64,000 bases of DNA from Haplodiscus bocki (lineage: Eukaryota): assembly GCA_965655095.1 (NCBI GenBank), contig OZ296654.1, positions 70,122,001 to 70,186,000 on the forward strand. The letters are read 5' to 3'. The first letter of the stretch is position 1, and each line of letters begins with the position of its first letter. Below, in pieces: positions 1,445 to 58,920 of the stretch. The notes beneath the pieces were generated by a model. The model made no database searches. It was not told the DNA's origin and saw only the letters and a list, made by a program, of their open reading frames with translations. Both the position numbers and the translations under genes were made by a program.

Positions 1445-1500
1445 TCGTAATCGTCGTTACCGTAGCAACAGTGGCGCAACGGTATGCGTCCGGGACTCGT

Positions 1501-2599: not shown

Positions 2600-2602
2600 T
2601 TT

Positions 2603-2620
2603 TGGCGCCCCACAAGGGAC
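2603..2620 (+). promoter_or_regulatory. Primer-binding site, tRNA-Lys type
   Basis: TGGCGCCCCACAAGGGAC, 3 nt after the LTR; 15/18 identical to the tRNA-Lys3 PBS TGGCGCCCGAACAGGGAC. Confidence 0.8.
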
Positions 2621-10400: not shown

Positions 10401-10893
10401 TTGTTTGGTTGAGCAGTTTCTGAATTCAAGGCCCCTAACGGCGGCTAGCTCCGATCCAAAGGATCTCGATGCGCTTACCCCAAATCACTTTTTCTTTGGT
10501 GGTCCGAACGCTGCATCAATGTTTCATGTGCCAGAAAAAACTCAACCTGACAATCACCGGCAACGGTATCGAAAGTCAATCGCATACGCCAATGCAATTT
10601 GGCATCGGTGGTTGACAGAGTATGCCCCAACCCTTAATGTTCGATCGAAGTGGAACCGGCAAGACCCTACCACATTGAAGACTGGAGACTTAGTTTGCAT
10701 CGTTTAACCAACGAGTCCCCGCGGGTTCTACCCGCTCGCTCGAGTTAAAGAACTCCATTACGGATGCGACGGCATTGCTCGTTCAGCTGTCATCCGATCT
10801 TCGGCCGGCGTATTCACTCGACCGACCACAAAACTTGTTTCTGTTTTCGACTCGTCTTCGCCCAGGCGGGAGGATGTCGCTTACGCGAATTAA
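4453..10893 (+). pseudogene. gag-pol: BEL/Pao gag-pol polyprotein with several nonsense and frameshift lesions
   Basis: Coiled-coil N-terminus; Pao gag motif FDGNPLQWHEW; three Cys/His knuckles (CPVC..H..C, CFSC..H..C, C..C..H..H); protease ALCDSGCS; RT WYLPHHPV and FYMDD; RNase H VFGDSS, KLELQAA, WSDS, NPAD; integrase SDNGTNF. Stops at 6469, 7222, 7702, 9479, 10705; frameshifts near 8135, 8290 and 9860. Confidence 0.95.
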
Positions 10894-11362
10894 ATCAAGT
10901 AAACGGTCACGCACGCGGATTAAACCGTCGCGTGTGTCTATTTAGCGAACCTGTAACCGACCTTGTAAGCGAAAGGTCCGGCGATCGATTCCCGACCGGA
11001 CCGAACCTTTTTCACTCCAGTTTTTTTGAACTTCGAAGTTGTTAATTGGCTGAAATTTGCATATGAAAGTTTGTTTGGCCAATCAGAGCCGATTATGCAA
11101 ATTTCTTCCGAAAGCATGAAAAGACGCCCTCTAGGGGATGAAATTGAAATCGGCTAAACTAAGAAAAACTGAACATTGGGGCTTGTTTCATCGACACCGA
11201 ACAGACGGTTCAAAGAAATACGTTCGGACAAAGTGTTAATTTGTTAATAATTCTGCTCAATTCAAGCCATTTCTGTTAGAATAAACTCTCTGTTGGTGAT
11301 TCAAACTTGGAAATAACAGCTTTATTTCCACGGATTTAACCGGTTTATCGGGCCACGTCACA
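10875..11362 (+). repeat. 3' LTR (488 bp)
   Basis: Direct repeat of 2112-2599, preceded by PPT AGGCGGGAGGA (10864-10874). Confidence 0.95.
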
Positions 11363-14520: not shown

Positions 14521-16129
14521 CTATCTTCTGTCTTTTGCGCTAGACTATGAAAATAAAATTGCTATATAAATCACAAGTTAACTATCAACCGCTCGCTAGC
14601 ATTATTCAAAAATGGTCTAACTAAGTATTAGAACACACTGTTTACATAGCAAACAACAATATTCGAATTTTCTAAAGTCATAAAGCGTGAACAAAAGGTG
14701 TAATGGTGGTAACCAAGATCCAAATTAACATTTCGCTCCCAAAAAGAGTTAGCTGGGGGTTGAATATCTCAGTGTGAACATTTTCAAAGTATGGTATGAT
14801 CCAACTCATTAATCGTTAAAGATATCTATATATGTCATTTAACTGAATACCAAAAAGGGGTATGTGGCATCCCAACAAGCACAGGGAAAGCCAAAACACA
14901 TAATTTCCGAAGGTGCAGCGTGAATGATCGTTCGAGAAGGGTAAAATTTGAAGGAAACAAGTAATCACGACACAAAACACCAATTTTGCTAGATAATTCT
15001 CAAAAAAACTACAAATTTTTTTCATTGTAAAATGTCAAACACGAGTCAAATGGGTCAGAAAGATAAACATCATCAAACGTTGAAGCACCAATGAAAAGAG
15101 ATAAGCATTTTCAAACGAATGATGCAATAGAACGATAGAAAAGATGATGAAATCCGTCAAAAGCTTGGCAAAAGAGCTACTTCTCAGAAAAGCGGCGTTG
15201 GGCGGGATGAGAAATTTTTGGTCTCCGATTTGGCTCAAAAATATGTTTGGGGGGTTAAGGGCCTAAAAGATTCTTAACAACTGAAACATAGCTCACAAGC
15301 TCTTGCTGAGTAAATTTTAGAGCACTTTAAAGTTGGGCTCTGAGCGCTAGGTGAAAAGGAACTTTTTCCAGTTCTATTTAAGGAGCAAAGTCGCCAATCT
15401 TCAAAAGATGGATTGTTGCAGTGGTAGCACTCATCCAGGCAATGCATAGGTTTTAACCTCATCCAAAATAAACAAATAATGTTTTTTCGTAAAAATGAAA
15501 AATAAGCAGAATTTATGATTTTTTTTCAAATCTCTGGCGTCTCTGGCGCCAGCTGAGGGGATAATCGAGTGACGGATAATTGAAGGATAGCTTTTATAAT
15601 TTTATGCGGTGTTTCCGAAAACTTGTCATAAATTCAGTAAGTTGAAACAAGACGTCAGTAAACGCTCGATTATACGTTGCTCAATATTTTGCCAACAATC
15701 ACTCGTTGGCAGACCTAATTGATGGGAGTGGATGGTATTCAACCAAAACCAAGTACTACAACCATAGTTTTTGTTTTGGAAGAGAACTCTGTATCCCAAA
15801 GTTCAGTAATCCCTCGATTGTCCGCCAAGAGTTGTGCAGCATATTGTTGGTGGATAAACGATTGTATTTTGCAGGCAGAAAATGAGCATTCTGTTGTTGA
15901 TAGAAATTTTACCGAAAAATGAAAGTGAGAAGAGCGTCTTGCGAAAAAAGTCTCTGTATTGGTCGGCACTGATTTCCAAAGAGCCGACTACAAATATTAA
16001 AGTTACACCTTTTCTATTTCACAGATATATACAAAGACGACTGGGACATTAAAATCACAACAAATGTTGAGCTAAAAAAGAAATGGTTTACTGTAATAGT
16101 TTCTCCTTCAAGAATAAGAAAACTCTAAC

Positions 16130-16785
16130 CCTCAAATAGTGATAAGTGTCTTGATCCAGAGATGAGTCGAATGTCCGAAGCACTTTGATGACCCCAGCAT
16201 GGTTTCCAGTCAGCAGAAGATATCTGGGACTCTCTGGCACCAAAGCAGCTACGAAGAAGCAAGAAACGAGGACAATTATTGAAGTTATAATCACATACCA
16301 CTTCCAGCCATCTGGACTGGGAAGGGTAAACATTGCAATAGTAGACGCTAAAATAGTTCCCAGAAAAGCTGCAAAAAATATAATCAGTGTGGCAAACGAT
16401 CTACTTTTTGCATTGACCATTTCAGTTGCATACGTCACGGGAAGATACGCACCTCCTATTCCTACACCTGTGACGAGTCGTAGGATAGCATATGGAGTCA
16501 AGGCGTTGGCAAAACTTGTGGAAAACCCAAAGACTCCAATCCATAATAAAACTATAATCAAGGTAACTTTGCGTCCATATTTATCGGCGATAGTGCCCCA
16601 AATAAGAGAACCGGCCAGTGCGCCAACGTAGAGGGATGATGTGCTCATCGCTTCCTGGAGACCTGAAAGTTTCCACTCGCATAAAAGGACAGGGCCCAGA
16701 AGGATTCCTACTTCGGTTTCCATGACGTCACCGACAGTTACTATTGACAGGACCAGAATGACGACATAGTGGTAACAGGTGAATC
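16130..16785 (-). CDS. Exon of an SVOP/SV2-related MFS transporter (N-terminal half, TM1-6)
   Basis: GFTCYHYVVILVLSIVTVGDVMETEVGILLGPVLLCEW; motif A GTIADKYGRK; LRLVTGVGIGG; TYATEM; GWKW; PESPRYLL. Putative acceptor TTAAG| at 16786 and donor GTTAGA at 16129. Confidence 0.85.
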
Positions 16786-17080
16786 CTTAAACTTTCCAAG
16801 TCTATCTTGCATCTTGCAAAAATTTCTGATTAGTTTCTTTAATGTGTGAACAAAAAAAGTAAACGTCCGTTGAAGGAATCGATTTAAAAATTGTTTCCTT
16901 AAACATTTCTTCCGTTGAAAAATATATCTTTTTCTCGCTTTTTTATCAAAAGTGAAATTGCACACACTCATCAAATGTATGTTTGCGAGGATCATAGGAG
17001 CAAAAAATTGCTTTTCAAAACAATTATGAAGATCCCGGTTTGAATTTAAAATAAATTCAACAATGAACAGCTCTGAATCA

Positions 17081-18669: not shown

Positions 18670-20739
18670 ATCACAAAACGTCAACACTGATAGTCTCTGT
18701 TACATTTGTTCTCTGAAAGATCGAAAAACTCTGGATCAGCGCTGTTTAGCCCAGTAGTCTCTGACAACTCAATCGGAGATGCTATCTAACTAATCTGGTA
18801 GTCCTAATTTCTTGATATCCTCATCTATTATTTTTGAAAAATTCCCTGAAAATAATTTAATTCTCATACAATCAAAGTGAAAAAAAGTTAAGATTTGCTG
18901 CAGTCAGTTCCATTCACAAACCCGACTCCCCAGGTTCTACGTCCTAAAAGTGGGATTCGCGGTCAGGTCAGTAGACTTGGAAGTTTCCTTTACCAGTGGA
19001 ATCTAACAACTCATCCAGCGTTATCTCTTTCAAGGGTGGGCTGCAAAGATGAAAGGAACAAGTCAAAGATTTTTATAGACAGCTAATTGAGTCAAAAATA
19101 TTGTATACCGATCAACGTGCCGTAAAATATTTTATTACTAAAGTGATAAAAATTCCAAGCAATGTCAAAATACAAATGCAAAATTCGGCTCAGTGAAATT
19201 GGGGTGTAAATTGACGATAAGGTCTTTTGAGAAAAACGTCATCAAAGTTAACAGCAATGATATCGATCAAATGTTTGCGAGAGAAATCGTCATTCATGAA
19301 ACAAGAACTTTTCTTTCTTTATGAAAAAGAAAAGAAACAGAAACATCAATTCGACTTTCAGATGGCTTAAAAAAGGTACTAACATTTCTGATGGGTTGAT
19401 AGCACCGTACCCATCAGGGGGTAATTCTTCTCCGCCTGTTGTGCTTCCTATCACCTCCTCCAGTCCTGGGCGAGCTGTCGCTTTCTTCCTGCAAACAAAA
19501 AGAGGGTACTTACGAGAGTTCTATCTCTGTAAGTTAGCAATGGGTGTTTTATTTTCCGCCCCTATTAAAATATGGAAGGAAAGTCATCCAATCAAAGCGT
19601 TTTTTTTCAACGTTTACTTGCCAAGTGAATGAGTGAGATTTTGAGGGCATGAGTTTGAAAAGTTTGAATGCGAATGAAACTGTAGGACTTCTTCAATACG
19701 TACAAAAATAGGATTTTTTAGTCAAAAAAATTGGATTTGGAATTTTTTGTTAAATTAGTGAAAAGCAAGAAATTTGATGCAGAATGCCGTTTAAATGGTA
19801 GTATTTACTGGAAAGGCCTTTTTGCTACCAAAATATAGGATTTTTTTCAAAAAATTTTAAAAAAAACTCCAAAGTTTTTCAAACTCGTGAAAAAATAGCA
19901 AAACTGAAATAGAACGCAAACAGAAGGGTATTCTCCTCAAAGTGCATTTTCAACAAAGTTGCCGAGAAGAAAATATCCCTGTGCTAGCCAGGGTGTCATT
20001 TTTTGCATGTGTTTCTTGACGTTTTGTAGCTGCCGGTGTTCCACTGTGTATATGTTGCTGATACATTCTATGTCACTCAGAGTCGGATTAGAATGCTTTG
20101 TTGAAACTTCGCTCCGAAAAGTCAAATCTTTCGAAGTGTTGTCGCTCACAGTAAAATCAAAATGCTTTGCTGAAAATTGTTTCTGAAAAATTACCTCATT
20201 TTGATTCAACAACTGTTCATTTTGCAAAAAACCAGCTTTGTCTCCAAAACTAGAAAGTTGTCAATCTTGGTCCAATATTGCACAATCCATCTGTCCGAGA
20301 AAATCGGAAACCAAAACTTTATACCCATGCTACCACCCAAAGTCTTGACTGTTCTCAGAAAACAACAACTTCAAAGCCTGCTCAATGGAAACCATACTGC
20401 CAAAAGGAGCAAAAATTACACAATGTTGTTGTTAATACAATTGAAGAAAACAATGAAGAACTTTCTTGCTTAATCACAGAATTATGCCATGACGTCCAAC
20501 TTGAAATGAAAGTTGTAGCCTATTGGTCTCAAATTTTCACTTAACTTGATGGTATCTGCTGCCATGCGAGCTAAAAAAAAGCTCTGACTTCTGTTGACGA
20601 TCAAAAGTACAATACTAGTATTCCTATGATCAACACTGGTAAACAATTCACCTAATCAGGGGTATATTTGTAATACAAATTTGAGCAATCAGATAGCCGT
20701 GGATGCATATGACAATTCCATTTTGGCTGAATAGTTTTC

Positions 20740-23700
20740 CGTTGATGATCGATGAGATCAAGAATTTTGCCGGTGAATATGTTTGCAAGCATCCATGGAA
20801 GCGAATTTTCGAAGGACTTTTTCTACTCTTCTAGAGAAACGTTCTCCGAACATTATATCCCAGCAATTTGTTGAGAACTAAAGTGGTGCTCAATTGAAAT
20901 TCATTTTTTTCAGCAGTTCCAGCAAACAAACTGTCAATGTGTTCATCGTCCCAGGGGCAAACCTCTAAAAATAGCTCGAAAGAAACAGAAAAGTAATCAT
21001 TATCTTATTCATGAGCAATGATTGGCATTTTGATGAAATTGTCATCCAGATGGAGAAAATCTTCAAAAGGCTTTGTTTGGGAGCTTTTTTGCGCAAGAAA
21101 GAACAATCGGACATGTTCCAACAGTTGAAAAGAGCGCAAGTTCAATGGCTAGAAAAATAGAATACCACAGAATATGCGACCAAACACTTTTACCCAATAT
21201 TGTTTTGATTAGATTTTGTTTTTAACTTACGTTCCATTCTAAACTTTTTTGCCCGCAGTGAGCTTACAGCAGCTCCACAGAATGGGAAAACTCTAAAAAA
21301 ATGGTCCCAAGAAACAGATTGTTAAAATTCAGATTCAAAGCTGAGAAATTAATTGGCCTCCACAAAGTTCTGAGGAGATGTTAATTCAAAATTCAAAATT
21401 TTGGACTCCATCTTTTTTTCTTGCAATAAAAACATCAACAAAATACAGGCCAGTTGATGTGTAAACTAGGGCAGAAAGAATGAAATTCCTGCATAGGGAA
21501 TTTTGGAAGAAAAAATGATAAACGGCTCATTCTACAACTTTCTGTCAGTTTCATGGTGCAATTTTGAATAAAACGGAAGTTTGGGGAGAAGAAACGTAGA
21601 ATAGGAAGTCAATCAAAGCATCCACGGAAGAATATTCCGGTTTTAGGATTCTTGAAGTTTTCAATCGGAAGCTCAATATTCCAAACCCACATAACCCGTT
21701 GTGATCTGGGTTCAAAATTTCTGCGAATTTGTTCAGTCTCCTTACAAAACTCTGCGATCATTTCTCACATGTTTTGACAGTTTTTTTGGGTGTGAAGCGG
21801 TACGTCGAATCGCCTAAAAGTTTCTGGAAAGCTTGGAATTGCCAGCATTACCAAATATATGGTTCGTGAAATGAATGGAGTTTCAGAAGAAGGTTAAAAA
21901 TCCCTTTACAGTTGTCTATTCCGGACGAAATTGAATATACTCATATTACAATTGGAAGAAATATGAGTTTCATTGGTTTCAATTGTAATTTAGACTATCA
22001 ACTTATCGCCGGCTCAAGCAGAAATTACAATGTCAGGCGACAGCCATGTTGTGAAATTGAAAAACTTTGAAGATTTTTAACCTCTCAAAAAGCTCGGAGT
22101 TCCAGGCGTACGTGCAATGGCACTGCACCGCAACATTATACAGTTCAAGACATTCACTGCGTCAACTGTGTTTGCTATCTTTGTAGACGGAAATTCTACA
22201 GTCACCGTCACCCTTTTAAGTTCAGAGTTTTCTTCAGAGCTCGATAGGAGATTAATTTTGAAAACACGAAAAAAAGTAGAAACTGTTCAGTCCTTTCAAA
22301 AAGTGCGTTTACTTTTGAAAAGTCTTCTGCTCTCTGAATGCCTAAAACTGGATGAAAGCGTTCTTATATTACGCTACATTTTTTACTTCTCAACATTCTT
22401 ACAGTTCTTTGATGTTCGAATACATCAGTCAACTGGCTGAGTGGATAACTAGAAGAAGGCAAGTAAAATGGCAAAAATTTCAATTACCAAACGAATTGTA
22501 CAAAAGATATTGTATATTTTATATCATATTCCGAAACTAGCTTGTGGTTTAAATTTTGATGTCGTGGATGAGCTCACTGGAGGTTGATAGAAAGGAGGAA
22601 AGGTAGCTGATTTGATTTTAAAAGGATCAATTTGTACAATATTTGCATTCGGGCTGGAAAATTTTCCGTTAGTGATCGACGAGATCAAGAACTTTTGCGG
22701 TGATAATGTTTGCAGGCATCCGTGGAAACGAACTTTTGAAGGGTTGTTTCCACTCTTCTAGAGAAACGTTGTGCGAACATTAGATTCCAGTCATTTCTTG
22801 AAAACTGAATTGTTGCTCAAAAACTTTCATTTTTTAAGCACTTCCAACAACTAAACTGTCAATGTACTCATCGTCCAAGGAGCAAACCTCTAAAAATAGC
22901 TCGAAAGAACAGAAAAGTAATCAATATCTGATTCATAGGCAATGATTGGCATTTTGATGAAAGTTTCGTCCAGATGGAAAAAAGTTTTGAAAGGCTTTGT
23001 TTGGGAGCTTTTTTTGCGCAAAAAAGAACAATCCGACATGTTCCAACAGTTGAAAAGAGCGCAAGTTCAATGGCTAGAAAAATAGAATACCACAGAATCT
23101 GCGACCAAACAATTTTACCCAATATTGTTTTGATTAGATTTTGTTTTCAACTTACGTTCCATTCAAGTTTTCTTGACCACCTCAAGCTTGTAGCAGCTCC
23201 ACAGAACGGGAAAACTCTAGTAAAGTGGTCCAAAAAAAAACAAAACATATTTTTAAAATTAATATTCAATATCTGAGAAATCAAACACCCTCAACAAAGT
23301 TTTACTGAGATGTTAATTCAAAATTCAAAAATTAGGACTCAATGTTTAACTCTTGCTTGGAGAACATAAGGAAACACAGGCCAGCTGATGTGTAAACACG
23401 GGCAGAATGAATGAAGTTCTGCCTAGGGAATTTTTTGTAGAATAAAATGGATTTCTCAGAGGCAACTTCCTACATATTACTCGAAAGGTATCGAAAACTA
23501 TAACATCTGACTCCTATGCAATGTTATGCAAATCGATGAAATTGTCGTCCAGATGGAAAAAGAATTCGAAAGAAAACAAACAAAAGGTTTTATTTGGGAG
23601 CGTGTTTTGCGCAGGGGAATACATTCCACCGTCTCCAATAGTTTAAAAAAGCAACAGGTCAATCGCTATTTATACAGGAAACCACTGAAACTGCGACCCA

Positions 23701-26700
23701 ATAATTTTAGCCTTTATAATTTTAAATAGTTTCTGTTTCTACTTTACCTTCCATTAAAGGTTCATGGACCACACTTAGCATAGAGCAGTTCCTCAGAGTG
23801 AGTGGGAGATTCTAATAAATTCGCTGAAAAAACATCGAATTTTTTAACGGAGCAAAGTTATGGCCTCCACAAGCTTTTACTGAGATGATAACTCAGACTC
23901 TTCAAAATAGGACTCCATGTTTAACTCTTGCAAAGAAAACGTAAGAAAAAGCACATGCCTATTGAACTGAAAACATGGACACAGTGAATGAAACTCCTGC
24001 CTAGGGAACTTTTTCGTAGGAAAAAAGTTGATGAGCGGCTCATTATATAATTTCTGACAGTTTCAATGGTGCTATTTTGACTAAAACGGAAATTTGTGGA
24101 GAAGAAACGTGGAATAGGAAGTCAATCAAAGCTTCTACAAAAGATTATTCCGGTTTTGCGTTTCTGAAAATTTTCTTTGTGAAGCTCAAATTTCCAAACC
24201 CATATAACTTGTTTTGATCTTGGTTCAAAATTTTCGCGACGTCATTCAGTCTCGTTACGAAACTCCGAGATCATATCACAAACGATTTAACAGTTTTTTT
24301 GGGTGTGAAGCGCTACGTAGGTTTGCTTAAACGTTTCTGTAAAGCTTGGAATTTCCAGCAAAACGAAAGTTTTGGTTCCTCAATTGCAATAATTATCAAA
24401 AGAAGGTTAAAAATTGACTTACAGTTGTCTATTCCGGACAAATTAGAATATACTCATATTACAATTGGAAGAAATATGAGTTTCATTGGTTTCAATTGTA
24501 ATTTAGACTATCAACTTATCGCCGGCTCAAGCAGAAATTACAATGTCAGGCGACAGCCATGTTGTGAAATTGAAAAACTTTGAAGATTTTTAACCTCTCA
24601 AAAAGCTCGGAGTTCCAGGCGTACGTGCAATGGCACTGCACCGCAACATTATACAGTTCAAGACATTCACTGCGTCAACTGTGTTTGCTATCTTTGTAGA
24701 CGGAAATTCTACAGTCACCGTCACCCTTTTAAGTTCAGAGTTTTCTTCAGAGCTCGATAGGAGATTAATTTTGAAAACACGAAAAAAAGTAGAAACTGTT
24801 CAGTCCTTTCAAAAAGTGCGTTTACTTTTGAAAAGTCTTCTGCTCTCTGAATGCCTAAAACTGGATGAAAGCGTTCTTATATTACGCTACATTTTTTACT
24901 TCTCAACATTCTTACAGTTCTTTGATGTTCGAATACATCAGTCAACTGGCTGAGTGGATAACTAGAAGAAGGCAAGTAAAATGGCAAAAATTTCAATTAC
25001 CAAACGAATTGTACAAAAGATATTGTATATTTTATATCATATTCCGAAACTAGCTTGTGGTTTAAATTTTGATGTCGTGGATGAGCTCACTGGAGGTTGA
25101 TAGAAAGGAGGAAAGGTAGCTGATTTGATTTTAAAAGGATCAATTTGTACAATATTTGCATTCGGGCTGGAAAATTTTCCGTTAGTGATCGACGAGATCA
25201 AGAACTTTTGCGGTGATAATGTTTGCAGGCATCCGTGGAAACGAACTTTTGAAGGGTTGTTTCCACTCTTCTAGAGAAACGTTGTGCGAACATTAGATTC
25301 CAGTCATTTCTTGAAAACTGAATTGTTGCTCAAAAACTTTCATTTTTTAAGCACTTCCAACAACTAAACTGTCAATGTACTCATCGTCCAAGGAGCAAAC
25401 CTCTAAAAATAGCTCGAAAGAACAGAAAAGTAATCAATATCTGATTCATAGGCAATGATTGGCATTTTGATGAAAGTTTCGTCCAGATGGAAAAAAGTTT
25501 TGAAAGGCTTTGTTTGGGAGCTTTTTTTGCGCAAAAAAGAACAATCCGACATGTTCCAACAGTTGAAAAGAGCGCAAGTTCAATGGCTAGAAAAATAGAA
25601 TACCACAGAATCTGCGACCAAACAATTTTACCCAATATTGTTTTGATTAGATTTTGTTTTCAACTTACGTTCCATTCAAGTTTTCTTGACCACCTCAAGC
25701 TTGTAGCAGCTCCACAGAACGGGAAAACTCTAGTAAAGTGGTCCAAAAAAAAACAAAACATATTTTTAAAATTAATATTCAATATCTGAGAAATCAAACA
25801 CCCTCAACAAAGTTTTACTGAGATGTTAATTCAAAATTCAAAAATTAGGACTCAATGTTTAACTCTTGCTTGGAGAACATAAGGAAACACAGGCCAGCTG
25901 ATGTGTAAACACGGGCAGAATGAATGAAGTTCTGCCTAGGGAATTTTTTGTAGAATAAAATGGATTTCTCAGAGGCAACTTCCTACATATTACTCGAAAG
26001 GTATCGAAAACTATAACATCTGACTCCTATGCAATGTTATGCAAATCGATGAAATTGTCGTCCAGATGGAAAAAGAATTCGAAAGAAAACAAACAAAAGG
26101 TTTTATTTGGGAGCGTGTTTTGCGCAGGGGAATACATTCCACCGTCTCCAATAGTTTAAAAAAGCAACAGGTCAATCGCTATTTATACAGGAAACCACTG
26201 AAACTGCGACCCAATAATTTTAGCCTTTATAATTTTAAATAGTTTCTGTTTCTACTTTACCTTCCATTAAAGGTTCATGGACCACACTTAGCATAGAGCA
26301 GTTCCTCAGAGTGAGTGGGAGATTCTAATAAATTCGCTGAAAAAACATCGAATTTTTTAACGGAGCAAAGTTATGGCCTCCACAAGCTTTTACTGAGATG
26401 ATAACTCAGACTCTTCAAAATAGGACTCCATGTTTAACTCTTGCAAAGAAAACGTAAGAAAAAGCACATGCCTATTGAACTGAAAACATGGACACAGTGA
26501 ATGAAACTCCTGCCTAGGGAACTTTTTCGTAGGAAAAAAGTTGATGAGCGGCTCATTATATAATTTCTGACAGTTTCAATGGTGCTATTTTGACTAAAAC
26601 GGAAATTTGTGGAGAAGAAACGTGGAATAGGAAGTCAATCAAAGCTTCTACAAAAGATTATTCCGGTTTTGCGTTTCTGAAAATTTTCTTTGTGAAGCTC

Positions 26701-28150
26701 AAATTTCCAAACCCATATAACTTGTTTTGATCTTGGTTCAAAATTTTCGCGACGTCATTCAGTCTCGTTACGAAACTCCGAGATCATATCACAAACGATT
26801 TAACAGTTTTTTTGGGTGTGAAGCGCTACGTAGGTTTGCTTAAACGTTTCTGTAAAGCTTGGAATTTCCAGCAAAACGAAAGTTTTGGTTCCTCAATTGC
26901 AATAATTATCAAAAGAAGGTTAAAAATTGACTTACAGTTGTCTATTCCGGACAAATTAGAATATACTCATATTACAATTGGAAGAAATATGAGTTTCATT
27001 GGTTTCAATTGTAATTTAGACTATCAACTTATCGCCGGCTCAAGCAGAAATTACAATGTCAGGCGACAGCCATGTTGTGAAATTGAAAAACTTTGAAGAT
27101 TTTTAACCTCTCAAAAAGCTCGGAGTTCCAGGCGTACGTGCAATGGCACTGCACCGCAACATTATACAGTTCAAGACATTCACTGCGTCAACTGTGTTTG
27201 CTATCTTTGTAGACGGAAATTCTACAGTCACCGTCACCCTTTTAAGTTCAGAGTTTTCTTCAGAGCTCGATAGGAGATTAATTTTGAAAACACGAAAAAA
27301 AGTAGAAACTGTTCAGTCCTTTCAAAAAGTGCGTTTACTTTTGAAAAGTCTTCTGCTCTCTGAATGCCTAAAACTGGATGAAAGCGTTCTTATATTACGC
27401 TACATTTTTTACTTCTCAACATTCTTACAGTTCTTTGATGTTCGAATACATCAGTCAACTGGCTGAGTGGATAACTAGAAGAAGGCAAGTAAAATGGCAA
27501 AAATTTCAATTACCAAACGAATTGTACAAAAGATATTGTATATTTTATATCATATTCCGAAACTAGCTTGTGGTTTAAATTTTGATGTCGTGGATGAGCT
27601 CACTGGAGGTTGATAGAAAGGAGGAAAGGTAGCTGATTTGATTTTAAAAGGATCAATTTGTACAATATTTGCATTCGGGCTGGAAAATTTTCCGTTAGTG
27701 ATCGACGAGATCAAGAACTTTTGCGGTGATAATGTTTGCAGGCATCCGTGGAAACGAACTTTTGAAGGGTTGTTTCCACTCTTCTAGAGAAACGTTGTGC
27801 GAACATTAGATTCCAGTCATTTCTTGAAAACTGAATTGTTGCTCAAAAACTTTCATTTTTTCAGCAGTTCCAGCAACTGAACTGTCAATGTCTTCATCGT
27901 CTCATGGGCAATTTCCTACAAATTACTCGCAAGATACAGAAGGCTACAATAATCTGACTCATATGCAATGATATCCAATTCGATGAAATTGTCGTCCAAA
28001 TGGAAAAAGAATTCGAAAGAAAACAAACAAAATGTTTTGTTTGGGAGCGTGTTTTGCGCAGGAAAAATCAATCAACCATTGCCAATAGTTTAAAAAAGCA
28101 AACGTTTAATCGCAGAAATACAGAAAACTACCGAGCTAGCGATCAATTAA
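20740..28150. repeat. Wider higher-order array built on an approximately 0.6-kb diverged monomer
   Basis: GATGAAA..GTCCAGATGGA.AAA motif recurs at about 21030, 22955, 23535, 25470, 26050 and 27980; diverged flanking copies at 20740-21930 and 27860-28150. Confidence 0.8.
21933..27861. repeat. Tandem duplication of a 2513-bp unit, about 2.36 apparently identical copies
   Basis: Identical ORFs at 22117, 24630 and 27143, and at 22974 and 25487; offset 2513 throughout. Confidence 0.95.
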
Positions 28151-30439: not shown

Positions 30440-31150
30440 TAGCCAAATGCACATGAGCAACCATGTGGAACCCCAACATAAAATCCAATGAGCCAAGGCT
30501 AGAGCTTGCGTTTTGCAGAAGACTTGTTCTATTGAGATTTTTCACACTTTTTTCATTCATCAAACTTTCAATCTTCACTGAAGTTGTGTGAGACAATGAA
30601 AATCAGAATTGCTGGATTTTTTCTCAATTTCTCCAACCGCTAGAACTGTTTGTTATTGGAAGCCCTGTTACAGCTGAAATTAGTTTTTGCCCACAACTTC
30701 TGATACAATTTCATAGTATTCTGAAACTTCTGAACTTGTCTCAAAACAAAATTGGCCGGCAAACAACCACTCTTAACACGACACACATCCTTTTTATGAA
30801 ACCTGCAAGCTAATTGAAGTGCTATAGAGACCAAAGCTCTAAAGCGTCATCGTATGGACATCAAATCTAAAGAAGTAGAAGTGCAAGTGTAAAAATCATA
30901 TTTCAATTGACTTTGTTTCTAGAACGATGTTGAATCCTGTCGCCGGGTTCACTCTTTTTTTATCTTCAATAGTTTCGACATATCGCTCTTTTTCATCGCA
31001 GATAGTGGAAATCCTTCGGCATTGCAGCTTAACCCAAGGGCCTATCGGCCCTGGAAGCTGGGCTCTAATGCCCTCGGGTTGTTCAAATATTCTTTTGACA
31101 AAGGAATAAAGGAAATGCCTCCTTTGAATTTGTTTTGGCATGCATTCCTC
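30440..31150 (-). repeat. Dispersed decayed sequence, inverted paralogue of 58170-58920
   Basis: Shared blocks include GATGACGCTTTAGA, CTCTATAGCACTTCAATTAG, AACAGGGCTTCCAA, TGAAGATTGAAA and GTTCCACATGGTTGCT. Confidence 0.8.
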
Positions 31151-43507: not shown

Positions 43508-44079
43508 TATTATAGCGACCAGCCTTGGGAGCTATGATTATTTCATAAGTTTTTTTCAGACGTAAAATTTTTTTTTAATTTGCAACAAATAAACTAATTT
43601 ATTAGGTTAGTTATTACAGGTTCTAAACGCTTATGAAAAGGTTTACAAAAATTAAATTACAAGTAAAAAAAAATAGAACACCAACATTTGTCTTGTCTTC
43701 GTGATGTAGGGAGGTAGAGAGAGAAGAATAGAAGAAATTCCGGATTATTTTTTATTACGATGAGAAAAGTTTATACAAAAAGATTGTTCAGATTGTTAAT
43801 AGAGCCAAGGGAGAAATGCATGATGGTAAAACAAATCGCTAGATGACGGCTGTTACGAAAATGTGTACTGATATACTTCATCACTCGTATTCTACAACGA
43901 ACAGACACCAAGAAAGAATTATTTACGAATTACTTTTACTACGATAACGAGAGGTTGAGTAATAACGAACTAGAGAGCCTGGAGAAAATGAAGTAAAAAT
44001 TGAGTACACTTTTCAACAACGTCACGTAGTAAAATAAAAATTATCTAGATCACTTATAGTTTTGTGGGTTTTTTTAACG
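43508..44079 (-). repeat. 3' LTR of the Gypsy element
   Basis: Collinear with 55197-55839 (TCTTCGTGATGTAG, TTGTTAATAGAGCC.AGGGAGAAATGC, TATAGTTTTGTGGG); purine tract AAAAAGAAGAAC on the minus strand just inside. Confidence 0.85.
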
Positions 44080-44132: not shown

Positions 44133-45031
44133 TTAATTCCAGCATGTGGAAGTGTCAACATCGCTAAAAGGGCAGCAGAAACTACACAGGTGAGAATTCT
44201 AATTTCGGACTCCACGAAGGCCACAACAGTCCAAAATTCTTCTGTTTTTCAATGTGGACAAAATGTCACAGATATCCGTTAACGCTTCCGATATATTCAT
44301 GGGGCAAGTTGGGTTCTGATCTGGGTGAGTGAGGGGTCGGAGTCGTAATTATAGTTTACCAATTTCCTTCGGGGTAGCAGTTTCCGGAACCCCAAGAAAC
44401 GTGTAGCAGTCAGCAGCGGCGAGGCGTTCAAAGTTTGTTTCAGCAAAAGATTGAAGTATTGCATAGAAACACTGAATGGCTCGTTCATTTGCTCTGGTCA
44501 CTTGCTTGACTTCTTGTAGTTCTTTTGAGCCAGTTGTGTTTTGGCGGATGTCGCGAGTCAAGACTTCATTATCCTTTAACAGTTGCTCATAATTATTTCA
44601 AAACAAGTTTACAGACTTTCCAAAGCGGGAGAGTTCAACTTCTTTCTCTTTGACTTGTGCTTCTAATTTTTCAATTACATCTGCTTCACAAAGTAGAACA
44701 GCGAGTTCTTTCAATTCATCAGGATCTATATTGCAGACAAAGTGTGAATAATTGGAGGCGAAAATGAAGTTTAAATGTCCATGGTGTCCGGGAGGACAAG
44801 AGGAGCAATAGGTGAGCAAAGGTTACATTCTACGATGGAGTTTCTGTTGACAGCAAGGGTGGTAATTGGTTTCGGAGGAGCCCAAAGCGCCGAAAAACCA
44901 ACAAAAAAAGACCGCCGGCGGCTGTCGAAAGCGGGGTGAACCATGACGCATTTTGTTGAAAGTATGACGTGAGTCAAATGATATGGAGTTGGGTCCAAAT
45001 TTTACACGGTGTCACCACAAGCTACATCCAT
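44133..45031 (-). pseudogene. Accessory ORF after env: coiled coil plus C-terminal DnaJ (J) domain
   Basis: ORFs 44598-44819 and 44349-44561 share a frame. Reading through the TAA at 44349 gives DCYTFLGVPETATPKEIGKL*LRLRPLTHPDQNPTCPMNISEALTDICDILSTLKNRRILDCCG. Confidence 0.8.
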
Positions 45032-45279: not shown

Positions 45280-47950
45280 ACAAGGTGGAAGTTAGATACG
45301 ACATAAGGAGGGGTATGAAATAGTGATCCTCACGGTACATACTCGTAGAAGAAAGAGCTCTCGGTGAAAACCTGAGGAAAGTAGCATGATTCAACATTAG
45401 TGAATTAACACTGGACGGGAGTAGATCGGAATACATAAAATATTTTTTAAGTAAGACGTAACATTGGACGGGAATAGGTTTACTGTGGTCAAGCATGAGG
45501 TGTTGAGTACGTGTGAGCAACATCGGGGTAGAGGAGGGGTTGTTTTGAGGATGTGTTGCTAGTGGGACAAGTGTCAACTTTGCGGCGTGCGAGTGATTCT
45601 GTGGCAAATTCGGATAACGCTGAAAGTTCGTCTTCGGTTCAATAAAAAAAACGCAGTTGTCGCTTGCGTGTCATCTGCAGCAAGCTCGTTAACGATGTGT
45701 ATAAATTGCGAAAGAGGCGTTGCAGATGAGTGATGAACTACTTCCATTGACGTTTGAACAATATGAAAGTGAAGCTGAAAGAAATCAAAGAAATGGTCAT
45801 GGACAAGAGAGCTAAACACAAAGCGCCCTCAGTCTGCATATATCCTTCGAGTGTTTTCCTCGTGGCAAGCTGAATGGAGGCCTAGTAGTGAGAGATGGGC
45901 TCAGCCACCGCTTTGAGTTTATCAAAATCCTTTGTGTGCACGTCGGGTACCTCCGCTAGTTCCATGCGGACACTGGTCAAGATACAGACTTGCGTATATC
46001 GCTGTGAGAACACATATTGAACTCGGCACTAGGCGGTGGTAGGGACTCAAAGACTTTTTGCAACGATGGAATTAGTTAAACTCTGGCGACAAACGGCTCC
46101 GGACGAGTTTCACAGTAACTCATGTCCGGGTTCAAAACAAGACCTCCATGGTTAAGCGTTATTTTAAATGAGCAACCTGGGCGAATGACACTTGCATGAC
46201 AGTCAATAGAGGATATTCTAGTGCCATGAGAATCGGTATCGTTCATCATTGGAACGTGGCAATTTCGTGGGATGACTTGATAAAGGCCATCTGCAAGGTA
46301 TGAAGCTTGCGGGGCATTAGGTAACAGAACTTATTCAAACGTGATAATTTTGGAAAGCGGGAACATTAAAGTTTTAAAACAGAGACGTTAAACACAACAA
46401 ACTCATATCTGTGGTAGTGCAAAATCCTTTACGGCAAGATTGATTCTGTTGGAGCCAAAACACTGTTGCAACGTGGCAACACCAAAGTCGGCGTGCTGGG
46501 ATTTGTCAGTCGCAGTTGATAAACAGTCATGACGGAACTGATACAAAGAAACAATAAAACCATCCTTATTGGGCTGATAAATTGGAATTGCACGGTTAAT
46601 ATTGACAGTAACAGATTATGAACTCATAGGTTTCCCAAGTACAACAGAGATATCAGAAGCTAGGATGGGAACTTCTAAGACAGTTTGAACTGCGTAGTAC
46701 GTTGTTTCGTAACCAACTTGCATGACTGGTGATAGCTTAGTATCGCGCTGAAAATATTCTTTTGAGAGTTCAGGAACAATCTCGGCTAAACAATTGGGTG
46801 TTGACAAAACAAAAGCAACATAGCTGGACGATATTGAAAATACTGCTGAATAAAGGTTACTTCTGCAAAAAACAAAAGCTGATTGGTAAAATCTAAGATG
46901 AGTGTACACAACATCCAAATACAAAGTTCGATTTTCCACTTTGAAGACGAGATTGCTAAAGTGTTTGGTATGGACTGCACAATGAGCAAAATAGTTCAAA
47001 GAATGAAAAAGTTGATCTATAACTTCGGACGTGGCGGTCAAATGGTTTTTGACTACATCCCCAAATGCGTTGACATTTTTCTGCGTCATTGATGTCTCTG
47101 AACCAAGGAGAACAAATTTTCTGTCGTTGACGGTTTGAACCATTTTCATTGATTCAGCAAAACGTTCTGTTGGGCCATAGGGTTGAAATGTCGTTCTTCA
47201 AATCTGTTCTATCGCTGCACAGTTTGAAGATAGGGAAAGCACTGCATGCTGCGTCCTTTATTGAGTTACCATGAACTAAGATAGCTGCTGCAGATACGGC
47301 CATCAATGCAGGAATAAAGCAACGTTGCCAAGAACGTCCCGTCTGTCTTTTGTCTCCGTTCGGTTTCGTGGACGGCGGTGCGAAAGACTCGGTAACTCGA
47401 AGGAGTTGAAGGTGTTCGTCTGCAATGGCATTTTTTCTTTCAGGAGAAGATTCACGCGATTTTCGACTAACTCAGCTAAACCTGCCAACTTTGCTAACAT
47501 AATATTGGTGTTGACGACGCAATACATGTGTGTAGATTAGAATTGGCCTCTAGTCAGATCCATATTATCTTGGTATCTGTGACCGGTATTGGAAAGTTTT
47601 TGACGCGCCTCTAAGACAATCTGGCGCAACTGGAATGCTCCAGCTGGGTCAAATGCTGGTGGCTGTGGAAATGGTGAAAAGAGTCTAACGTTACTCACAT
47701 TTTGAGATGTGACGGCTTGATAAGCTTAGGTAAATACTGCGCCTCGTTGTATATCCTGGTCTTCTTTCTTGGAGTCCACACTTGTTTGGAAAGAAACCTC
47801 GTAGCTGATCATAGGAAACCAAGAGTTCAGGAAGATATGGGAAGTTAGCCAAGGACACGTTCCGGAGCGTTGGTACTAAACAAAAAGAGGAAAACTAGGA
47901 AACGACAAAGAAGAGTAAGAAACTGGAGAGAAGTTAGACAGGTGAAAATA
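45280..47950 (-). pseudogene. env: Envelope/fusion glycoprotein (class I, errantivirus/baculovirus-F-like), disrupted
   Basis: Hydrophobic N-terminus at about 47900; basic site RRPRNRTETKDRR followed by hydrophobic DVLGNVALF; long helical region 47149-46616; Cys-rich 46600-46000; TM ALCLALLSMTISLISFSFTFILF at about 45755-45825. Confidence 0.75.
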
Positions 47951-48649
47951 GTAGCAAAAAATGCAAACTACTTTTTCTCATCATGATTCGATTTATGGGA
48001 ACTATGTTCCTATTTACTTCTTTTTAGATTTTCTAATTTCGAGTTGCTACGTTAATGCTTTTCTAATTGATGATGCGGTTGTGCATGCGCCAACGGTGTA
48101 GAACGTAACTGACGTTGACACGTGGGCAAGCTACCAAGTTTGGCAGACGTTTGCGAGGTAGTTGAGTGGTCTAACTTTTCTGCGGCCTCAGAAATGAGAC
48201 TCTCAATGGAAAAAGATGAAGATGAGTCTCGTGGTACAATGCTAATCCTTGGGAAACTTGAAATATCAAAAACGTCTTTAATTACTGTTGGAGAAAGTTC
48301 CTACGGTGAAATCTCAAAAAAATCTCGAGGTGGATTAAAAAGGGTGGTTTTACTGGGGACAGAAGAAGCTCGTTTCAGATATGCAGCAGCAGAAGATCCT
48401 TGGCCGGGGCTTCATGGACAAAGACTGCAGGAAATGGGTTTGTAGAAGCAGTTCGAGACCGGGGGTCTACTGGAATGTTTTCAACCAAAATTTGGGAACA
48501 GTTACAATGTTGGTGAGTAGCGGAGTGCGGTTTTTGAAACTATTTACTTGTCGGTTCCTTAGAGATATTTGATGCAGGCCGCGCGAGCTGTGGTCTTTTT
48601 GTGCGTTGAATGAAGGGTTTTAAAGGGTCATAATAGACGATGGACTCCT

Positions 48650-51600
48650 TTTGGATCGCTGTGTTTTTGATTTTTTATATAAAGTCGCTAAGACATTCTA
48701 CAATTGTGTATGGACCTTTACAAGGGGATGAGAGTTTGGGACTCAGTTCTTTGGGGGTGACAGAGTTATGTAACCAAACTTTGTCACCTGGTTTGTATCG
48801 GGGGCCGTGCGTTTTAGAATTATACACAGCACTGCGTCGCATTTGAGAAACTTGAAGATGAAGGTGTGCTGTATCGCGGGCTCTTTGCATGTTGGCACTT
48901 TTTTGCTGAATAAACTGATGCACGTCGGTTTTGTTCCTTTGTTCTTCCGAAGGATACTGGATATCCCCTGGGAGGTTAATTTCTTCGCCCGAAACAAGAA
49001 ACTGAGGTGTGTAACCTGTTGACTCATGGACTGAAGTTCGGAATGCCACCATTACATACGGAAAATGCTGGGCCCAGTTGCTTTGGAAGTCATCGACAGT
49101 TTTGGCCAACATGTTCAGTAAAGTTTTGTTCATTTGTTCGATTACGGCATTTGATTATAGATGGAATGTTGTAGTCCGCGTTTTATCAATCTTAACCGAC
49201 TATATGAGACTTTGGAAGAGTTCAGACACAAAGTTTCGACCTTGTTTGTATGAATGCTCATGGGAACGCCAAAACGACTACTCCAGTGTTGAAGTAGTGC
49301 GGTAGCAGTCAATTCAGCTGTCTGATCTGACAATGGGACTGCTTCATACCGCTTTGTGAAGTGATCACCAAATATTGCTTTGTATGAGTTACCATTTGAA
49401 ACCGGGAGTGGTACAAGGAAATCAATACCAATGTCAGCAAAAAACACCGGGAAACCAACTGACAAGGCTGTGTCTATGTTTCTGCTTGGAGCTGTTACGT
49501 TGTTGACAAACAAGACAACTTGAGACAAACACACTTGAATCTTTCTTGTGTCCTGGCCAATAGAATCTAGTTCGAAGCTTTTCTAAAGCTTTTTTAACTA
49601 CTAGGTGGGCAGCTGGTTCTCAACTGGGAATTGATTCTAAAATATTGGGTCACAATGTTGTTGGAACGACTTGTTGTAAAAGACTTTGGCTTGTGCTGGA
49701 ATCCTCAAAACTTCGCAAAAGTTATCATTTACAACATTGAGGGAGGTAAAGTTGTTCCAGAGAACCGAAATGTCTCTGGACTGGCCTTGTATGACTCAGC
49801 GATGGGGTTGTTTCCCGTTTTTAACCCAAGAAAGAACGGTTGCAATACTCTGATCGTCTTCTTGTGCTTGTTGCATGTAATTCTCTGTTCCTTATTCTTT
49901 TCGAGTCCCGCTATGACTAAAATTCTGCTGTTGCGGCCGTCTATAAACCGTGACTTTCAAGGAAGAGTTGTGGAAAACATCCGTGGTGGTTTTTTTCACT
50001 TTCAATCAATCTAGCTTATCTAGTCCGGTCGACAGTTGTGGTATGCTTATCTTTTTATTTTTGTGTTTCTGCACGGATTGCAAAATGGCTTCCAATGCTA
50101 CACGTAGGGAAAAATACGTTGGTTGGCTACAAAATCTGGACTCCACTATCAAGTCACAAAGGAATCTATTCGGAGAAATTTGTTGTGGGTAAACTTTTCC
50201 TTTCGACGCTTTCGACACAAACTCGGGGTATCCGGTTGGGAAATCTTTACTAACCTGCTTAGCAAAACCTGCTGCTAGCTTAAAAAAAGCTGAAATGCTA
50301 TGCGCTATTGAATCTGTCGAATCAAATAGATTTCCACTCAGTTCTAATACTTCAAATTTCTCAGAAGTTTTTGTTTGGCAGACTGTGTGCACGAGGTTAA
50401 AACTTTGTTGACTTCTCTCATCTTCAACATTTTAGGTATAAGATGCTATTGTTGCTCTTTTGACACCGTGTGCCCTTTTTGCCGAGTGACTGGTGCTTTT
50501 CCTTTGTCCGTGCGGGGACGATAACGCCATTCTGTGTCACTTGTTTCATCGTTGAATTGCGTTGGATGCTTTGCTTCAGCACTACTCGTAGATGCATGAG
50601 CCTGATCCACGGTGCCGTCTTGACTAGGAATCATGGACGTAGAGTCCGCGTGCCCGATACTTTTTGTACTGCGATGGATATTTTCATATTCAAAAGACCC
50701 TATTATTTGTAGCCAACGTGCCGTTAGACCATAGGGTCTTTGAAACTTTGAAGCCACTGCAAAGCTCTGTGATCAGTGACAATTTGGAACGTTCTTCCTA
50801 ACAAGTAATGCTTGAAATGTCTAGCGAATTTCACAATAGCCAAAAAGCTACGTTTCGTGGTGAAATGTCGGCTCTGAGTTTTGCTAAAGGATTTGGATGC
50901 TTAACAAATGACGCGTTCCGAACGATTTTGAAATTGAGTGAGAAGTGCGCCCATTGCATGCTGGCTAGCATCAGTATACAATATGAAAGTTTCGTTCTTG
51001 CTCGGGAAAACCAAAGTTTGGGCGAAGGTGAGCCTCAACGTCAGAACATCAAATGCTTTCTGGGCTTCAGAATTCTAGAGGAAATCTTTTAATTTCTCAG
51101 TCAGTTGATTCAAAGGACGGGCTGGTTTTGAAAAGTCTTGCACACCTCTTCTAAAGTATGAACAGAGACCTAAAAAAAATTTTAATTTCGGTACCCTTCT
51201 TTTGTACCGTGTATTTTTTAACAGCGGAAGTTTTCTCAGGATCGGCTTGGATGCCTACAGGGCCTTGATTTTGAGATTGGCCATTTTGAACCTTTGAAAA
51301 ATTTCACGAAGGTGGTCAAGGTGTTCTTCGATTGTGCGGGAAAGAATGATGCAATCATCAGAATAAAGAACTGTCAATTTCCAAGTTATGCTTACGAGTA
51401 CCTTTCTCATGAGACTTTGAAAGTGTTTGGACTGCCGGTGAGTCCCATTGGCATTCGCAGTTATATAAAAGATTCAAATGGTGTACTGAACGCTGTATAG
51501 TCCTCAGTGGCTTCTTCCATCCAGATTTGATAAACTTTCCAAGACCTGTCAATGATAGAGAAGTAACAACTACCTTCCAAAGTGTCAAAGGTTTCCCCGA

Positions 51601-52730
51601 TGGATCGTATTGGCCAACAGGACATAGTGGTATGCTTGTTAAACTGCTGATAGTCAATGACAAGTCTCAGTTTACCATTTTTTTGGAACTAACATAACAG
51701 GTGCACAGTATTGGCTATGGCACAGCTCAATGAGTTCATGCTCAAGGAATTGGTCCATTTTTTTCCCGAAGGTCTGATTTGAAATGCATTAGTATCAGTC
51801 AGTTCGGAAAATTGATCGGAGTACAACCTGGGTAAACTTGAATTTTATCTTTCACGAGATCGCATTTTCCGATGTCTTTTTCATCTTTAGAGAAAACAAC
51901 CGAAAAATCACGGAACAACTGCGCAAATTTCGCATGGGAACTTCCCATCAGAAGTAGTTTTGCCTGGTTGGAGGTCAGACTTGTTGATTGCGGTGTGTTT
52001 CTGTTTTGGTAGAAAAGTTACACTGTTCTGGGAGAACGTTTCGTCTTGCAGCATAGTGATTGTTCTTCGCGTTAAACCTTTGTAGATCATTCGATCTGCT
52101 CCGGGATTAATGATACGTGCCGGGATAGCATCCTCTTGAAATTTGGAAAACTTTCTGAAAGCTGAGACATTCTGCTTCTCACAGAAAGATTGTGAAGGTT
52201 CGAAAATTCATTGATTTGTCAGTAAGGTATGATCATCATGGCCAATTTTACCTAGAATATTCGCTTCATGACCGGACGTTTTGAGGGATGTTTCTCTGGC
52301 AACAACTCTCATGACTGGGCAGTGTCAGGATTGAAACGGTACTGTTCGATGGAAAAGGTTTGCGGAGGTACCACGGTTCAAACGTAACTTCGTTTCAAAA
52401 AACATGAGATCACACTTGTGTGTCTCACGAATATCGAGACCTAACAAACACTCATCTTCAGAAGCTTCAAGGACAAAAAAATGTGTCGAAAAGTCATTGA
52501 TTCTCTTTTAATTTCAACTGCATGTTCACCTTTTACTTTAATCTCGCTTGGATTGGCGGCTAGGAGTCGTTTAAAACATGGTTCCAGAGATGACTGCACC
52601 TTTGGAGGAAGACGAACGAACACTTTTGGGCTCAGACAAAAAACACTTGCGCCTGTGTCCCAAACGGCGTCTGACGGAATTTTAAAGACCGTAACTCGTA
52701 CAAAAACACTTCTGTCATCCACCACTGAAT
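48650..52730 (-). pseudogene. pol: Gypsy pol (protease, RT, RNase H, macrodomain, integrase with GPY/F module), disrupted
   Basis: Protease AVWDTGAS; RT remnants 52000-51150; RNase H ending TARWLQII...SIGHAD; integrase RFYWPG, IGIDF, IEQMNKTLLNML, HESTGYTP, KGPY. Confidence 0.9.
49940..50350 (-). other. TARG1/OARD1 (Poa1p-like) macrodomain embedded in pol
   Basis: GNLFDSTDSIAHSISA..LAAGFAKQV...QPTYFSLRVALEAI...ISIPQLSTGLDKLD*(W)..DVFHNSSLKVTVY. Confidence 0.85.
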
Positions 52731-52779
52731 TTACGCATTCCGTCTACTGAAGGCTTTTTGATTTGGCTGCGCAGTTGCC

Positions 52780-53720
52780 TCGTTGATAAGCAGGTGCTTT
52801 AAGTTTAACTTCTGGCGTCGGGTGCGGCATTTTTGCTTGAAGATGCCAATTTTGCCACAATTAAAACATGTTTTGCGGTCACGGCTGGGATCCTTGGTTC
52901 GGCCACATTGTTTGCATTTTTCTTCATCGCTACGGTGCGGACTCGAACTTCGGTCTCATTTGTTGTTTTTGGAGGTATCTGAGAAGCTAATTTTAGATTA
53001 AATCTGCTGATTGTTGCTGTTTAGGGCGGTTTTTTGCTCGTTGGGCTGGTTAGGTTCTTCAGAGATAGAAACGTTGTTATTGCGTCTCGATCCTGTTAAG
53101 GGAGACCGATATTGGTTACTATCTCGACTATCCGAGCGATTTTTTTGTTCTACGAGGCACTTCTGTTGGTACATGGTGACCTAGCCAAAGTGTCTTAAAT
53201 TTCTGTGCGGAGACTACGAACTAACTCAGTAAAAGTTTCGAGAGGGGTCTCAGTGCTGATATCGTTAACACCAGAACTTTGCATTTTTAAATCGTCGAAT
53301 TCAAGAAAAGACTGGGTTTCCAATGCTGTTTGCAGTGCAGCGTCAGCATCTGCGGTTTTCGCTTTGCGAACCTCCCTGCGAACAGTGGGGTTCGACAAAC
53401 TGGCAATGAAACTGGTCAGCAGGATTTCATTGCGGACAGCCTCAACAGGATAGCCATTGCGGGATAAATCTCGCAACTACCAGAAAAAAAATGGGGATGG
53501 TTTGTCCTGATTGTTGATGGGTAGCTTTAACTTTAGCCTTATGCATATCTTGATTAGGAGTTTACTGAGTTCAAAAAGCGTCAAGAAATCGATTTATGTT
53601 AACTACAAGTGGGGTATATGGAAGCACAGAAATCAAATCAACGTTTAAATGCTTGTTTGAGGCCAACAAAAGTTGAAAATTGGAACCATCGGTACGACAG
53701 CGGGTTTCAGTAACACAAAC
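52780..53720 (-). pseudogene. gag: Gypsy gag, disrupted
   Basis: QQSGQTI...RDLSRNGYPVEAVRNEILLTSFIASL capsid motif; zinc-knuckle remnants CKQCGR and CFNCGKIG. Confidence 0.75.
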
Positions 53721-55196: not shown

Positions 55197-55839
55197 TTAT
55201 ATAGCAATATTGCTTTGGGTGCTATAAGTTTTGTATGTTTTTCCTCAGAAACAAAAATCTTTTTGCACTTTGCAATAAATAAAAATAAAATATTAGGTTA
55301 GTTTTTTACAGGGTTAAAACGTTTACGAATAAATTGAAATAATTATAAACAAACAGTAAAACTTATAGAACACTAACATTTTTCTTTTCTTCGTGATGTA
55401 GAGAGATAGAAAGAGACGAAGAGAAGAATTTCCAGATTATTTTTCTTTACGATGAGAAAAGTTTACTTTTGCTATATAGATGAGCTGTTGTTTACTGCAC
55501 AAAAAGATTGTTGGGATTGTTAATAGAGCCGAGGGAGAAATGCGTGATGGGAAAACAAATCGCTAGTTGGCGGCTGTTACGAAAATGTCTACTTCACTAA
55601 TCGTAGCTGTTAACGAGTAATGACTGATGATATACTTCATGACTCGTATTCTACAACAAACAGATACGAAGAATGAATTACTTGCGAATTACTTTGACTT
55701 TAATAACGAGAGGTTGAGTAATAAGGGCCTAGAGATCCTGGAGAAATTGAAGTAAAAATTGAGAACAATTTTTACAAAGGTCACGTACTAAAAGCAAAAA
55801 ATATTTAAATCAGTTATAGTTTTGTGGGTCTTTATAATA
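55197..55839 (-). repeat. 5' LTR of the Gypsy element
   Basis: Diverged repeat of 43508-44079 with two extra insertions; termini decayed. Confidence 0.85.
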
Positions 55840-58169: not shown

Positions 58170-58920
58170 CGAACTGATGCCAAAGAAATGAAACTGATTC
58201 TTAGTATATGTTTGAACATGGGTAATGGAGGCGTGATGGCATTGGAGCCAGTGTCGAGAGCCAATAGGCCCGACATCTACGTTGCAATGCCATAGGGCTT
58301 CTGAAGCCATGTTCAATTTTTTTAGCAAGCATGTTAAACAAAAATATGTCAAATATGTCGGAGCTATATGTCGAAACATTTGAAGATGAAATTGAGCCAA
58401 CCCGGCATCATTTTAGAAAAACATCAATTTTGAAAAGTTTTTATTACTTGCTCTTTCATTTCTCTACATATTATTTCTATATGATGACGCTTTAGATCTG
58501 CTTTAATCTCTATAGCACTTCAATTAGTTTTCAGGTTCCTTAAAAAGAATGTGCGTCGTCAAACTTTTAGTTGAGACTGGTTTTTTCAATGACTTGCTTT
58601 TGAGGACTAGCTCAGAAGTTTCAAAATATTATAAAATTGTATCAAATCGTGTAGGTAAAAACTGCTTTCAGCTTTAACAGGGCTTCCAAATAGAAACAGG
58701 GCAAGCGATTGGAGAAATTGGTAGTACGATTGAAAAATGGAAGCCTGGCAACATTTCTTATTGACAAACATTTTTGAGCAATTCTAAACTAGCCTGCCAA
58801 TGAAGATTGAAATTTTGATCAATGAAACAGGAGTGAAAGATCAAACCTCCTGTAAAATTCAACTTTTAGCCCTGCTGACTCATTGGAGTTTTTCATAAGA
58901 GTTCCACATGGTTGCTTTTG
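58170..58920 (+). repeat. Intronic decayed paralogue of 30440-31150
   Basis: Collinear shared blocks in inverted orientation. Confidence 0.8.

Follow-up and report, generated by a model that had tools for sequence, protein, structure and literature searches.

A macrodomain of the TARG1/OARD1 class lies inside the Pol polyprotein of a family of Ty3/gypsy retrotransposons, and a decayed member of that family carries it in the stretch of Haplodiscus bocki DNA analyzed here (64,000 nucleotides, hereafter the window). We consider the chances evenly balanced that this domain is a captured TARG1-class ADP-ribosylhydrolase, integral to Pol, acting as a putative eraser that protects the element from host ADP-ribosylation. 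Sequence comparison establishes what the domain is, that intact Pol contains it in frame, that distant elements retain its catalytic dyad, and that the domain is conserved where the flanking linkers diverge.

The host element is a decayed Ty3/gypsy retrotransposon on the minus strand, from ~53,500 to 45,700. Its pol, from 52722 to 47971, aligns colinearly with the intact relative P0002 (1608 aa), at 55 to 77% identity per piece and with ~12 frame changes, and the order protease, reverse transcriptase (RT), RNase H, integrase is that of the Ty3/gypsy LTR retrotransposons (Metaviridae). Its parts, and the key positions of the macrodomain, are as follows:

55212..55837, no strand: possible 5' LTR, a direct repeat that precedes gag (three pieces match 43522-44077 at 78-92% identity)
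52734..53476, minus: gag remnant with zinc knuckle, weak (Pfam zf-CCHC E 0.13; sequence anatomy)
52465..52722, minus: aspartic protease remnant, start of pol (tblastn of P0002 1-86, 76% identity)
51261..51685, minus: reverse transcriptase core remnant (Pfam RVT_1)
50692..50993, minus: RNase H remnant (tblastn of P0002 598-700, 77% identity; Pfam RT_RNaseH on P0002)
50363..50676, minus: linker of ~105 aa from RNase H to macrodomain, one frame change, poorly conserved between families
49943..50362, minus: TARG1/OARD1-class macrodomain inside pol, pseudogenized in this copy
50141..50143, minus: equivalent of TARG1 catalytic Lys84, Glu in this copy (alignment to TARG1)
50018..50020, minus: equivalent of TARG1 catalytic Asp125, Asp kept (alignment to TARG1)
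50006..50008, minus: in-frame stop codon within the macrodomain
49674..49876, minus: small conserved bridge domain preceding integrase (25-28 identities of 68 in sister families)
48600..49670, minus: integrase remnant with H2C2, core and C-terminal part, ends approximate (Pfam Integrase_H2C2 E 2.7e-12, rve E 1.6e-5)
45740..47600, minus: broken env-like frame after pol (anatomy alone)
43522..44077, no strand: possible 3' LTR, a direct repeat that follows the env-like frame and pairs with 55212..55837

The diverged direct repeats flanking the element are possible LTRs; clear TG..CA ends or a target duplication were not seen at their aligned ends. The env-like frame has two hydrophobic stretches, one near 47321 that follows a basic site and a C-terminal one near 45815; this anatomy would fit a class I fusogen or envelope protein, and searches of Pfam and PDB with this frame gave no match. 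Between it and the left repeat lies a short, broken, coiled-coil-like frame (44352-44822, minus strand), whose end matches the beginning of a DnaJ domain (Pfam E 0.064) and which is either an accessory gene or an unrelated insertion.

Elsewhere in the window, a BEL/Pao LTR retrotransposon (1369-10964, plus strand; DUF1759, Peptidase_A17, DUF5641) has near-identical terminal repeats 8763 bp apart, yet its ORFs contain several stops. Tandemly repeated units, with periods of ~1925 and 2513 bp and some of them identical to each other, lie at ~20700-28100 and gave no match in an Rfam search. A dispersed repeat is present in two copies of opposite orientation, 71-87% alike and 27 kb apart, at 30536-30988 and 58361-58842. 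An exon-like ORF of the MFS/sugar-transporter family is found at 16091-16786 on the minus strand (Pfam E 1.7e-24); together with the BEL/Pao element, it would be in keeping with an invertebrate genome.

What identifies the macrodomain? The initial annotation, made from the letters of the window, had proposed a TARG1-like macrodomain at 49940-50350 between RNase H and integrase. The place holds, and the computed span is a few codons wider; the motifs it quoted are all real and fall within one minus-strand frame, with RNase H (50692-50993) on one side and the integrase core (49017-49441) on the other. The likeness to macrodomains goes well beyond chance. In a PDB sequence search with the 140-aa window domain, five of the eight matches at E≤10 were human C6orf130/TARG1 (E 1.9e-13 to 2.6e-13), as the proposed class assignment would have it, and the best match to anything else had E 0.16. 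The window copy is 29% identical to human TARG1 and 69% identical to P0002 (tblastn, E 1e-60). Pfam Macro is weak on the decayed copy (E 0.034), and the NCBIfam DarG model (NF048014) falls below its cut-off (E 1.6e-4; 21 bits vs. 250). Sequence and predicted fold are closest to TARG1, a minimal macrodomain, the fold prediction having used an alignment of TARG1-like homologs and so not being independent of the sequence match. The catalytic pair of TARG1 is Lys84/Asp125 (PMC8120803). As first noted, the aspartate of the GLD motif is kept and the lysine position reads Glu; with this Glu and the in-frame stop, the window copy is a pseudogene, a functionless fossil.

Intact relatives tell a different story from the fossil. 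A macrodomain search, which would miss members without the domain and carriers of a decayed one, gave 1137 candidates; 15 of them proved to be related proteins, each from an ENA contig. P0002, which represents 61 member sequences, has Pfam matches to protease, RT, RNase H, Macro (872-933, E 1.6e-6, above cut-off) and integrase; in both P0002 and P0005 the macrodomain sits in frame between RNase H and integrase. A macrodomain match and continuity with pol, two of the checks proposed at the outset, were both obtained. The Lys84 equivalent is Lys in all 13 of the 15 relatives that span it and the Asp125 equivalent is Asp in 10 of the 11 that span that position; Glu and stop are therefore decay in the window copy, as the early reading of the Glu had suspected. 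Basic residues occupy the equivalents of TARG1 Arg86 and 126 in 11/11 family rows. At the equivalent of Lys50, in the RNA-binding patch, the residue is basic in 3/11 and Glu in 8/11, and its neighbor 49 is basic in 7/11. The element domain differs from human TARG1, its closest known counterpart, by frequent Glu at the Lys50 position and by Val instead of Thr before the catalytic Lys, as well as by sitting in a retroelement polyprotein. Between P0002 and its sister families the macrodomain can be aligned end to end, whereas the linkers cannot: identities between P0002 and P0030 are 72/88 in RNase H, 65/133 in the macrodomain and 23/105 in the linker, and those between P0002 and P0126 are 54/139 in the macrodomain, 3/18 in the linker that follows and 30/59 in the integrase H2C2 zinc finger. 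Purifying selection would give such a pattern of conserved domain and diverged linkers in a protein-level comparison.

Is the domain confined to this family? Most Ty3/gypsy elements, to our knowledge, lack a macrodomain. With the P0002 domain as query, a full phmmer scan matched 2455 proteins at E≤0.001, and we examined the best 150 of these. A Pol segment, identified by comparison with P0002, lies beside the macrodomain in 26 of the 150, 12 in the window's family and 14 outside it; Pfam adds P0037, P0111 and P0112, bringing the nonfamily carriers to 17. Among these 17, the macrodomain is between RNase H and integrase in nine (P0030, P0081, P0113, P0130, P0165, P0099, P0126, P0158, P0151), after integrase in six (P0084, P0095, P0112, P0120, P0142, P0147) and beside the protease in two (P0037, P0111). 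Some of these proteins may be gene-model chimeras. The Lys/Asp dyad is complete in 17/17, a figure for carriers picked from the best 150 of 2455 matches by likeness to an intact domain, and the equivalents of His32, Ser35, Asp37, Lys84, Gly123 and Asp125 are kept across all groups. RT identities among four long carrier Pol proteins are 27-48%, so the carriers represent distant lineages. The window family and its sister families form one 99* clade; because the protease-adjacent P0034/P0037 fall inside it, the macrodomain has moved within pol. The AU test does not reject a single origin for the whole set of element-borne domains (p-AU 0.29), and the family domain is 42% identical to vertebrate-type TARG1 vs. 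34-43% to other element-borne domains. The other matches in the best 150 have the TARG1-like domain either on its own or fused to DNA ligase III, PNKP, NADAR and others; P0051, P0055, P0060, P0073, P0121, P0135 and P0146 join the domain to DNA ligase III (one 96* clade) or to a PNKP-like protein. TARG1-like domains also occur in phages (11 records) and insect RNA viruses.

What might a retroelement gain from such an enzyme? Domains of Ty3/gypsy Pol are packaged with the genomic RNA. The macrodomain would travel in the particle beside genomic RNA, RT and integrase, either cleaved off or still joined to RNase H or integrase, and would remove host-added ADP-ribose through a covalent Lys intermediate. 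Its substrates could be uracil, guanine or thymine bases, phosphate ends, or acidic residues of element proteins. Because ADP-ribose adducts would block translation and templated synthesis, the eraser would protect reverse transcription and integration. Several properties reported for the cellular enzyme bear on this proposal. TARG1 works through a covalent Lys intermediate and frees both acidic residues and phosphate ends of ADP-ribose (PMC7050489); it reverses thymine ADP-ribosylation on single-stranded DNA, which its K84A mutant does not (PMC8501950). Uracil ADP-ribosylation is reversed by TARG1 and also by Drosophila Targ1/3 (PMC13036486), and TARG1 removes the uracil and N1-guanine adducts from RNA (PMC13036486, 10.64898/2026.03.31.715305). 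Base ADP-ribosylation lowers translation, and RNA binding by TARG1 is tied to three basic residues, K50, R86 and R126 (10.64898/2026.03.31.715305). The dyad is no proof of a role in conflict, because cellular TARG1 keeps the same dyad for housekeeping. The initial interpretation is partly supported: class, place and decay of the lysine stand as annotated, and the counter-defense or cDNA-protecting role proposed with them keeps its conditional form; the active site of the intact relatives hints that hosts may fight such elements with ADP-ribose tags.

Other readings of the domain deserve weighing. It could assist repair, clearing PARP1-type ADP-ribose at integration nicks and gaps or on single-stranded cDNA intermediates and so speeding gap repair. 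TARG1 removes PARP1-made DNA ADP-ribosylation at telomeres (PMC11102865) and moves to the nucleoplasm after damage (PMC7050489), related domains are fused to DNA ligase III and PNKP-like proteins (P0051, P0121, P0146), and the element domain is close to integrase or RT in all positions seen. However, nuclear TARG1-type enzymes already exist in the host, and a private copy would make most sense in the particle, beyond the reach of host erasers; we consider this reading unlikely. Rather unlikely, too, is a reader that, by binding poly(ADP-ribose), would anchor integrase on PARylated, open chromatin, much as chromodomains serve chromoviruses. The ALC1-like class includes readers (PMC7050489), and 6/17 nonfamily carriers have the domain after integrase, where chromodomains sit (10.1101/2021.11.30.470311), but 11/17 have it before integrase, two of those beside the protease, and the dyad that a pure reader would not need is kept in all 17. 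Quite improbable is a passenger, a captured fold kept merely as a connector between RNase H and integrase: the macrodomain does evolve faster than RNase H (49% vs. 82% identity, P0002 vs. P0030), P0165 has a degenerate second macrodomain, and the bridge region carries variable domains in many elements (PMC13524379), yet active-site residues are kept across all groups and the domain is also found outside the bridge. An artefact, in which a host TARG1 gene or retrocopy landed in a single copy, is barely credible even with the domain about equally close to vertebrate-type TARG1 (42%) and other element-borne domains (34-43%), and is rejected for the window family by the 15 relatives with the domain at the same place on other contigs and by the in-frame P0002 domain, which groups with sister families in the 99* clade.

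How does an eraser inside Pol relate to known systems? RNA viruses offer a parallel: alphavirus nsP3 and coronavirus Mac1 are also polyprotein-borne macrodomains, and their role against host PARPs is established. Among retroelements, macrodomains had been said to occur already, and a review that cites Basta et al. 2009 describes them as additional ORFs in epsilon-like ERVs of fish (PMC4977317); like the window family, these are LTR elements that captured a macrodomain, but by the review's description they are Retroviridae, whereas ours has a TARG1-class domain inside Ty3/gypsy Pol. The nearest concept is the AlkB m6A demethylase of orchid Gypsy elements, a host eraser of nucleic-acid modification fixed in a Gypsy lineage and proposed to counter surveillance (PMC9289625). 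That enzyme, whose activity has been shown, is a separate ORF in a plant and has other chemistry, whereas the window domain is inside Pol; the word "macro" does not occur in the orchid paper. DarG, a thymine-ADP-ribose glycohydrolase described as lacking the acidic partner (PMC7050489), is the antitoxin of a bacterial toxin-antitoxin operon, and no DarT-like partner was seen at the window element. The literature we searched, which left out most subscription journals and Repbase reports, contained no description of a TARG1-like domain inside Ty3/gypsy Pol; P0002 already bears an automatic PF01661 label, so others may have noticed the domain before.

Could the same module underlie a known feature of errantiviruses? 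Relative to RNase H, the macrodomain core has its second and third strands swapped. Almost all insect errantiviruses have a "pseudo RNase H" in the slot that the window macrodomain also occupies, after RNase H and before integrase; it has five strands with the same two swapped, and was read by its describers as a duplicated RNase H (PMC13524379). Errantiviruses in their sense are Ty3/gypsy elements with an F- or gB-type env after pol, and term searches of the text and seven supplements of that study gave no mention of macrodomains. Its table of 178 rows has two with a pseudo plus a mini domain and nine with two pseudo domains (PMC13524379). The former would parallel the order RNase H, macrodomain, mini in P0002, where the bridge domain seen at 49674..49876 in the window is, from its position, probably the "mini" domain; the latter parallel RNase H, macrodomain, second macrodomain in P0165. 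This gypsy-like Pol, noted at residues 667-787 (locus L001, match 928-3288), combines RNase H with an intact TARG1-like domain and a degenerate second macrodomain, and is labeled a Brevinema MAG protein, probably through host contamination. The second macrodomain reaches 21.6 bits on a macro profile from which it had been left out (best of 1000 shuffles, 9.5) and keeps Lys and Asp in the two catalytic columns. The case that the errantivirus "pseudo RNase H" is a macrodomain is circumstantial. We propose, tentatively and at well below even likelihood, that animal Ty3/gypsy Pol has long included a TARG1-class hydrolase as a mobile module, moved among three positions, that the "pseudo RNase H" derives from this module, and that the module erases base-linked ADP-ribose from element RNA and cDNA in the particle.

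If the "pseudo RNase H" is a macrodomain, the structural marker that splits insect from ancient errantiviruses needs rereading. For ADP-ribose on thymine, uracil and N1-guanine, enzymes of the TARG1 class are the sole erasers reported in humans (PMC8501950, PMC13036486, 10.64898/2026.03.31.715305). Selfish elements with such an eraser, its active site intact, in a protein that travels with their RNA and cDNA would point to a purpose for these base marks, defense against retroelements, and the element-borne domains are small and open to direct assay. If our proposal is true, animals use nucleic-acid ADP-ribosylation as a retroelement defense, a eukaryotic counterpart of DarT.
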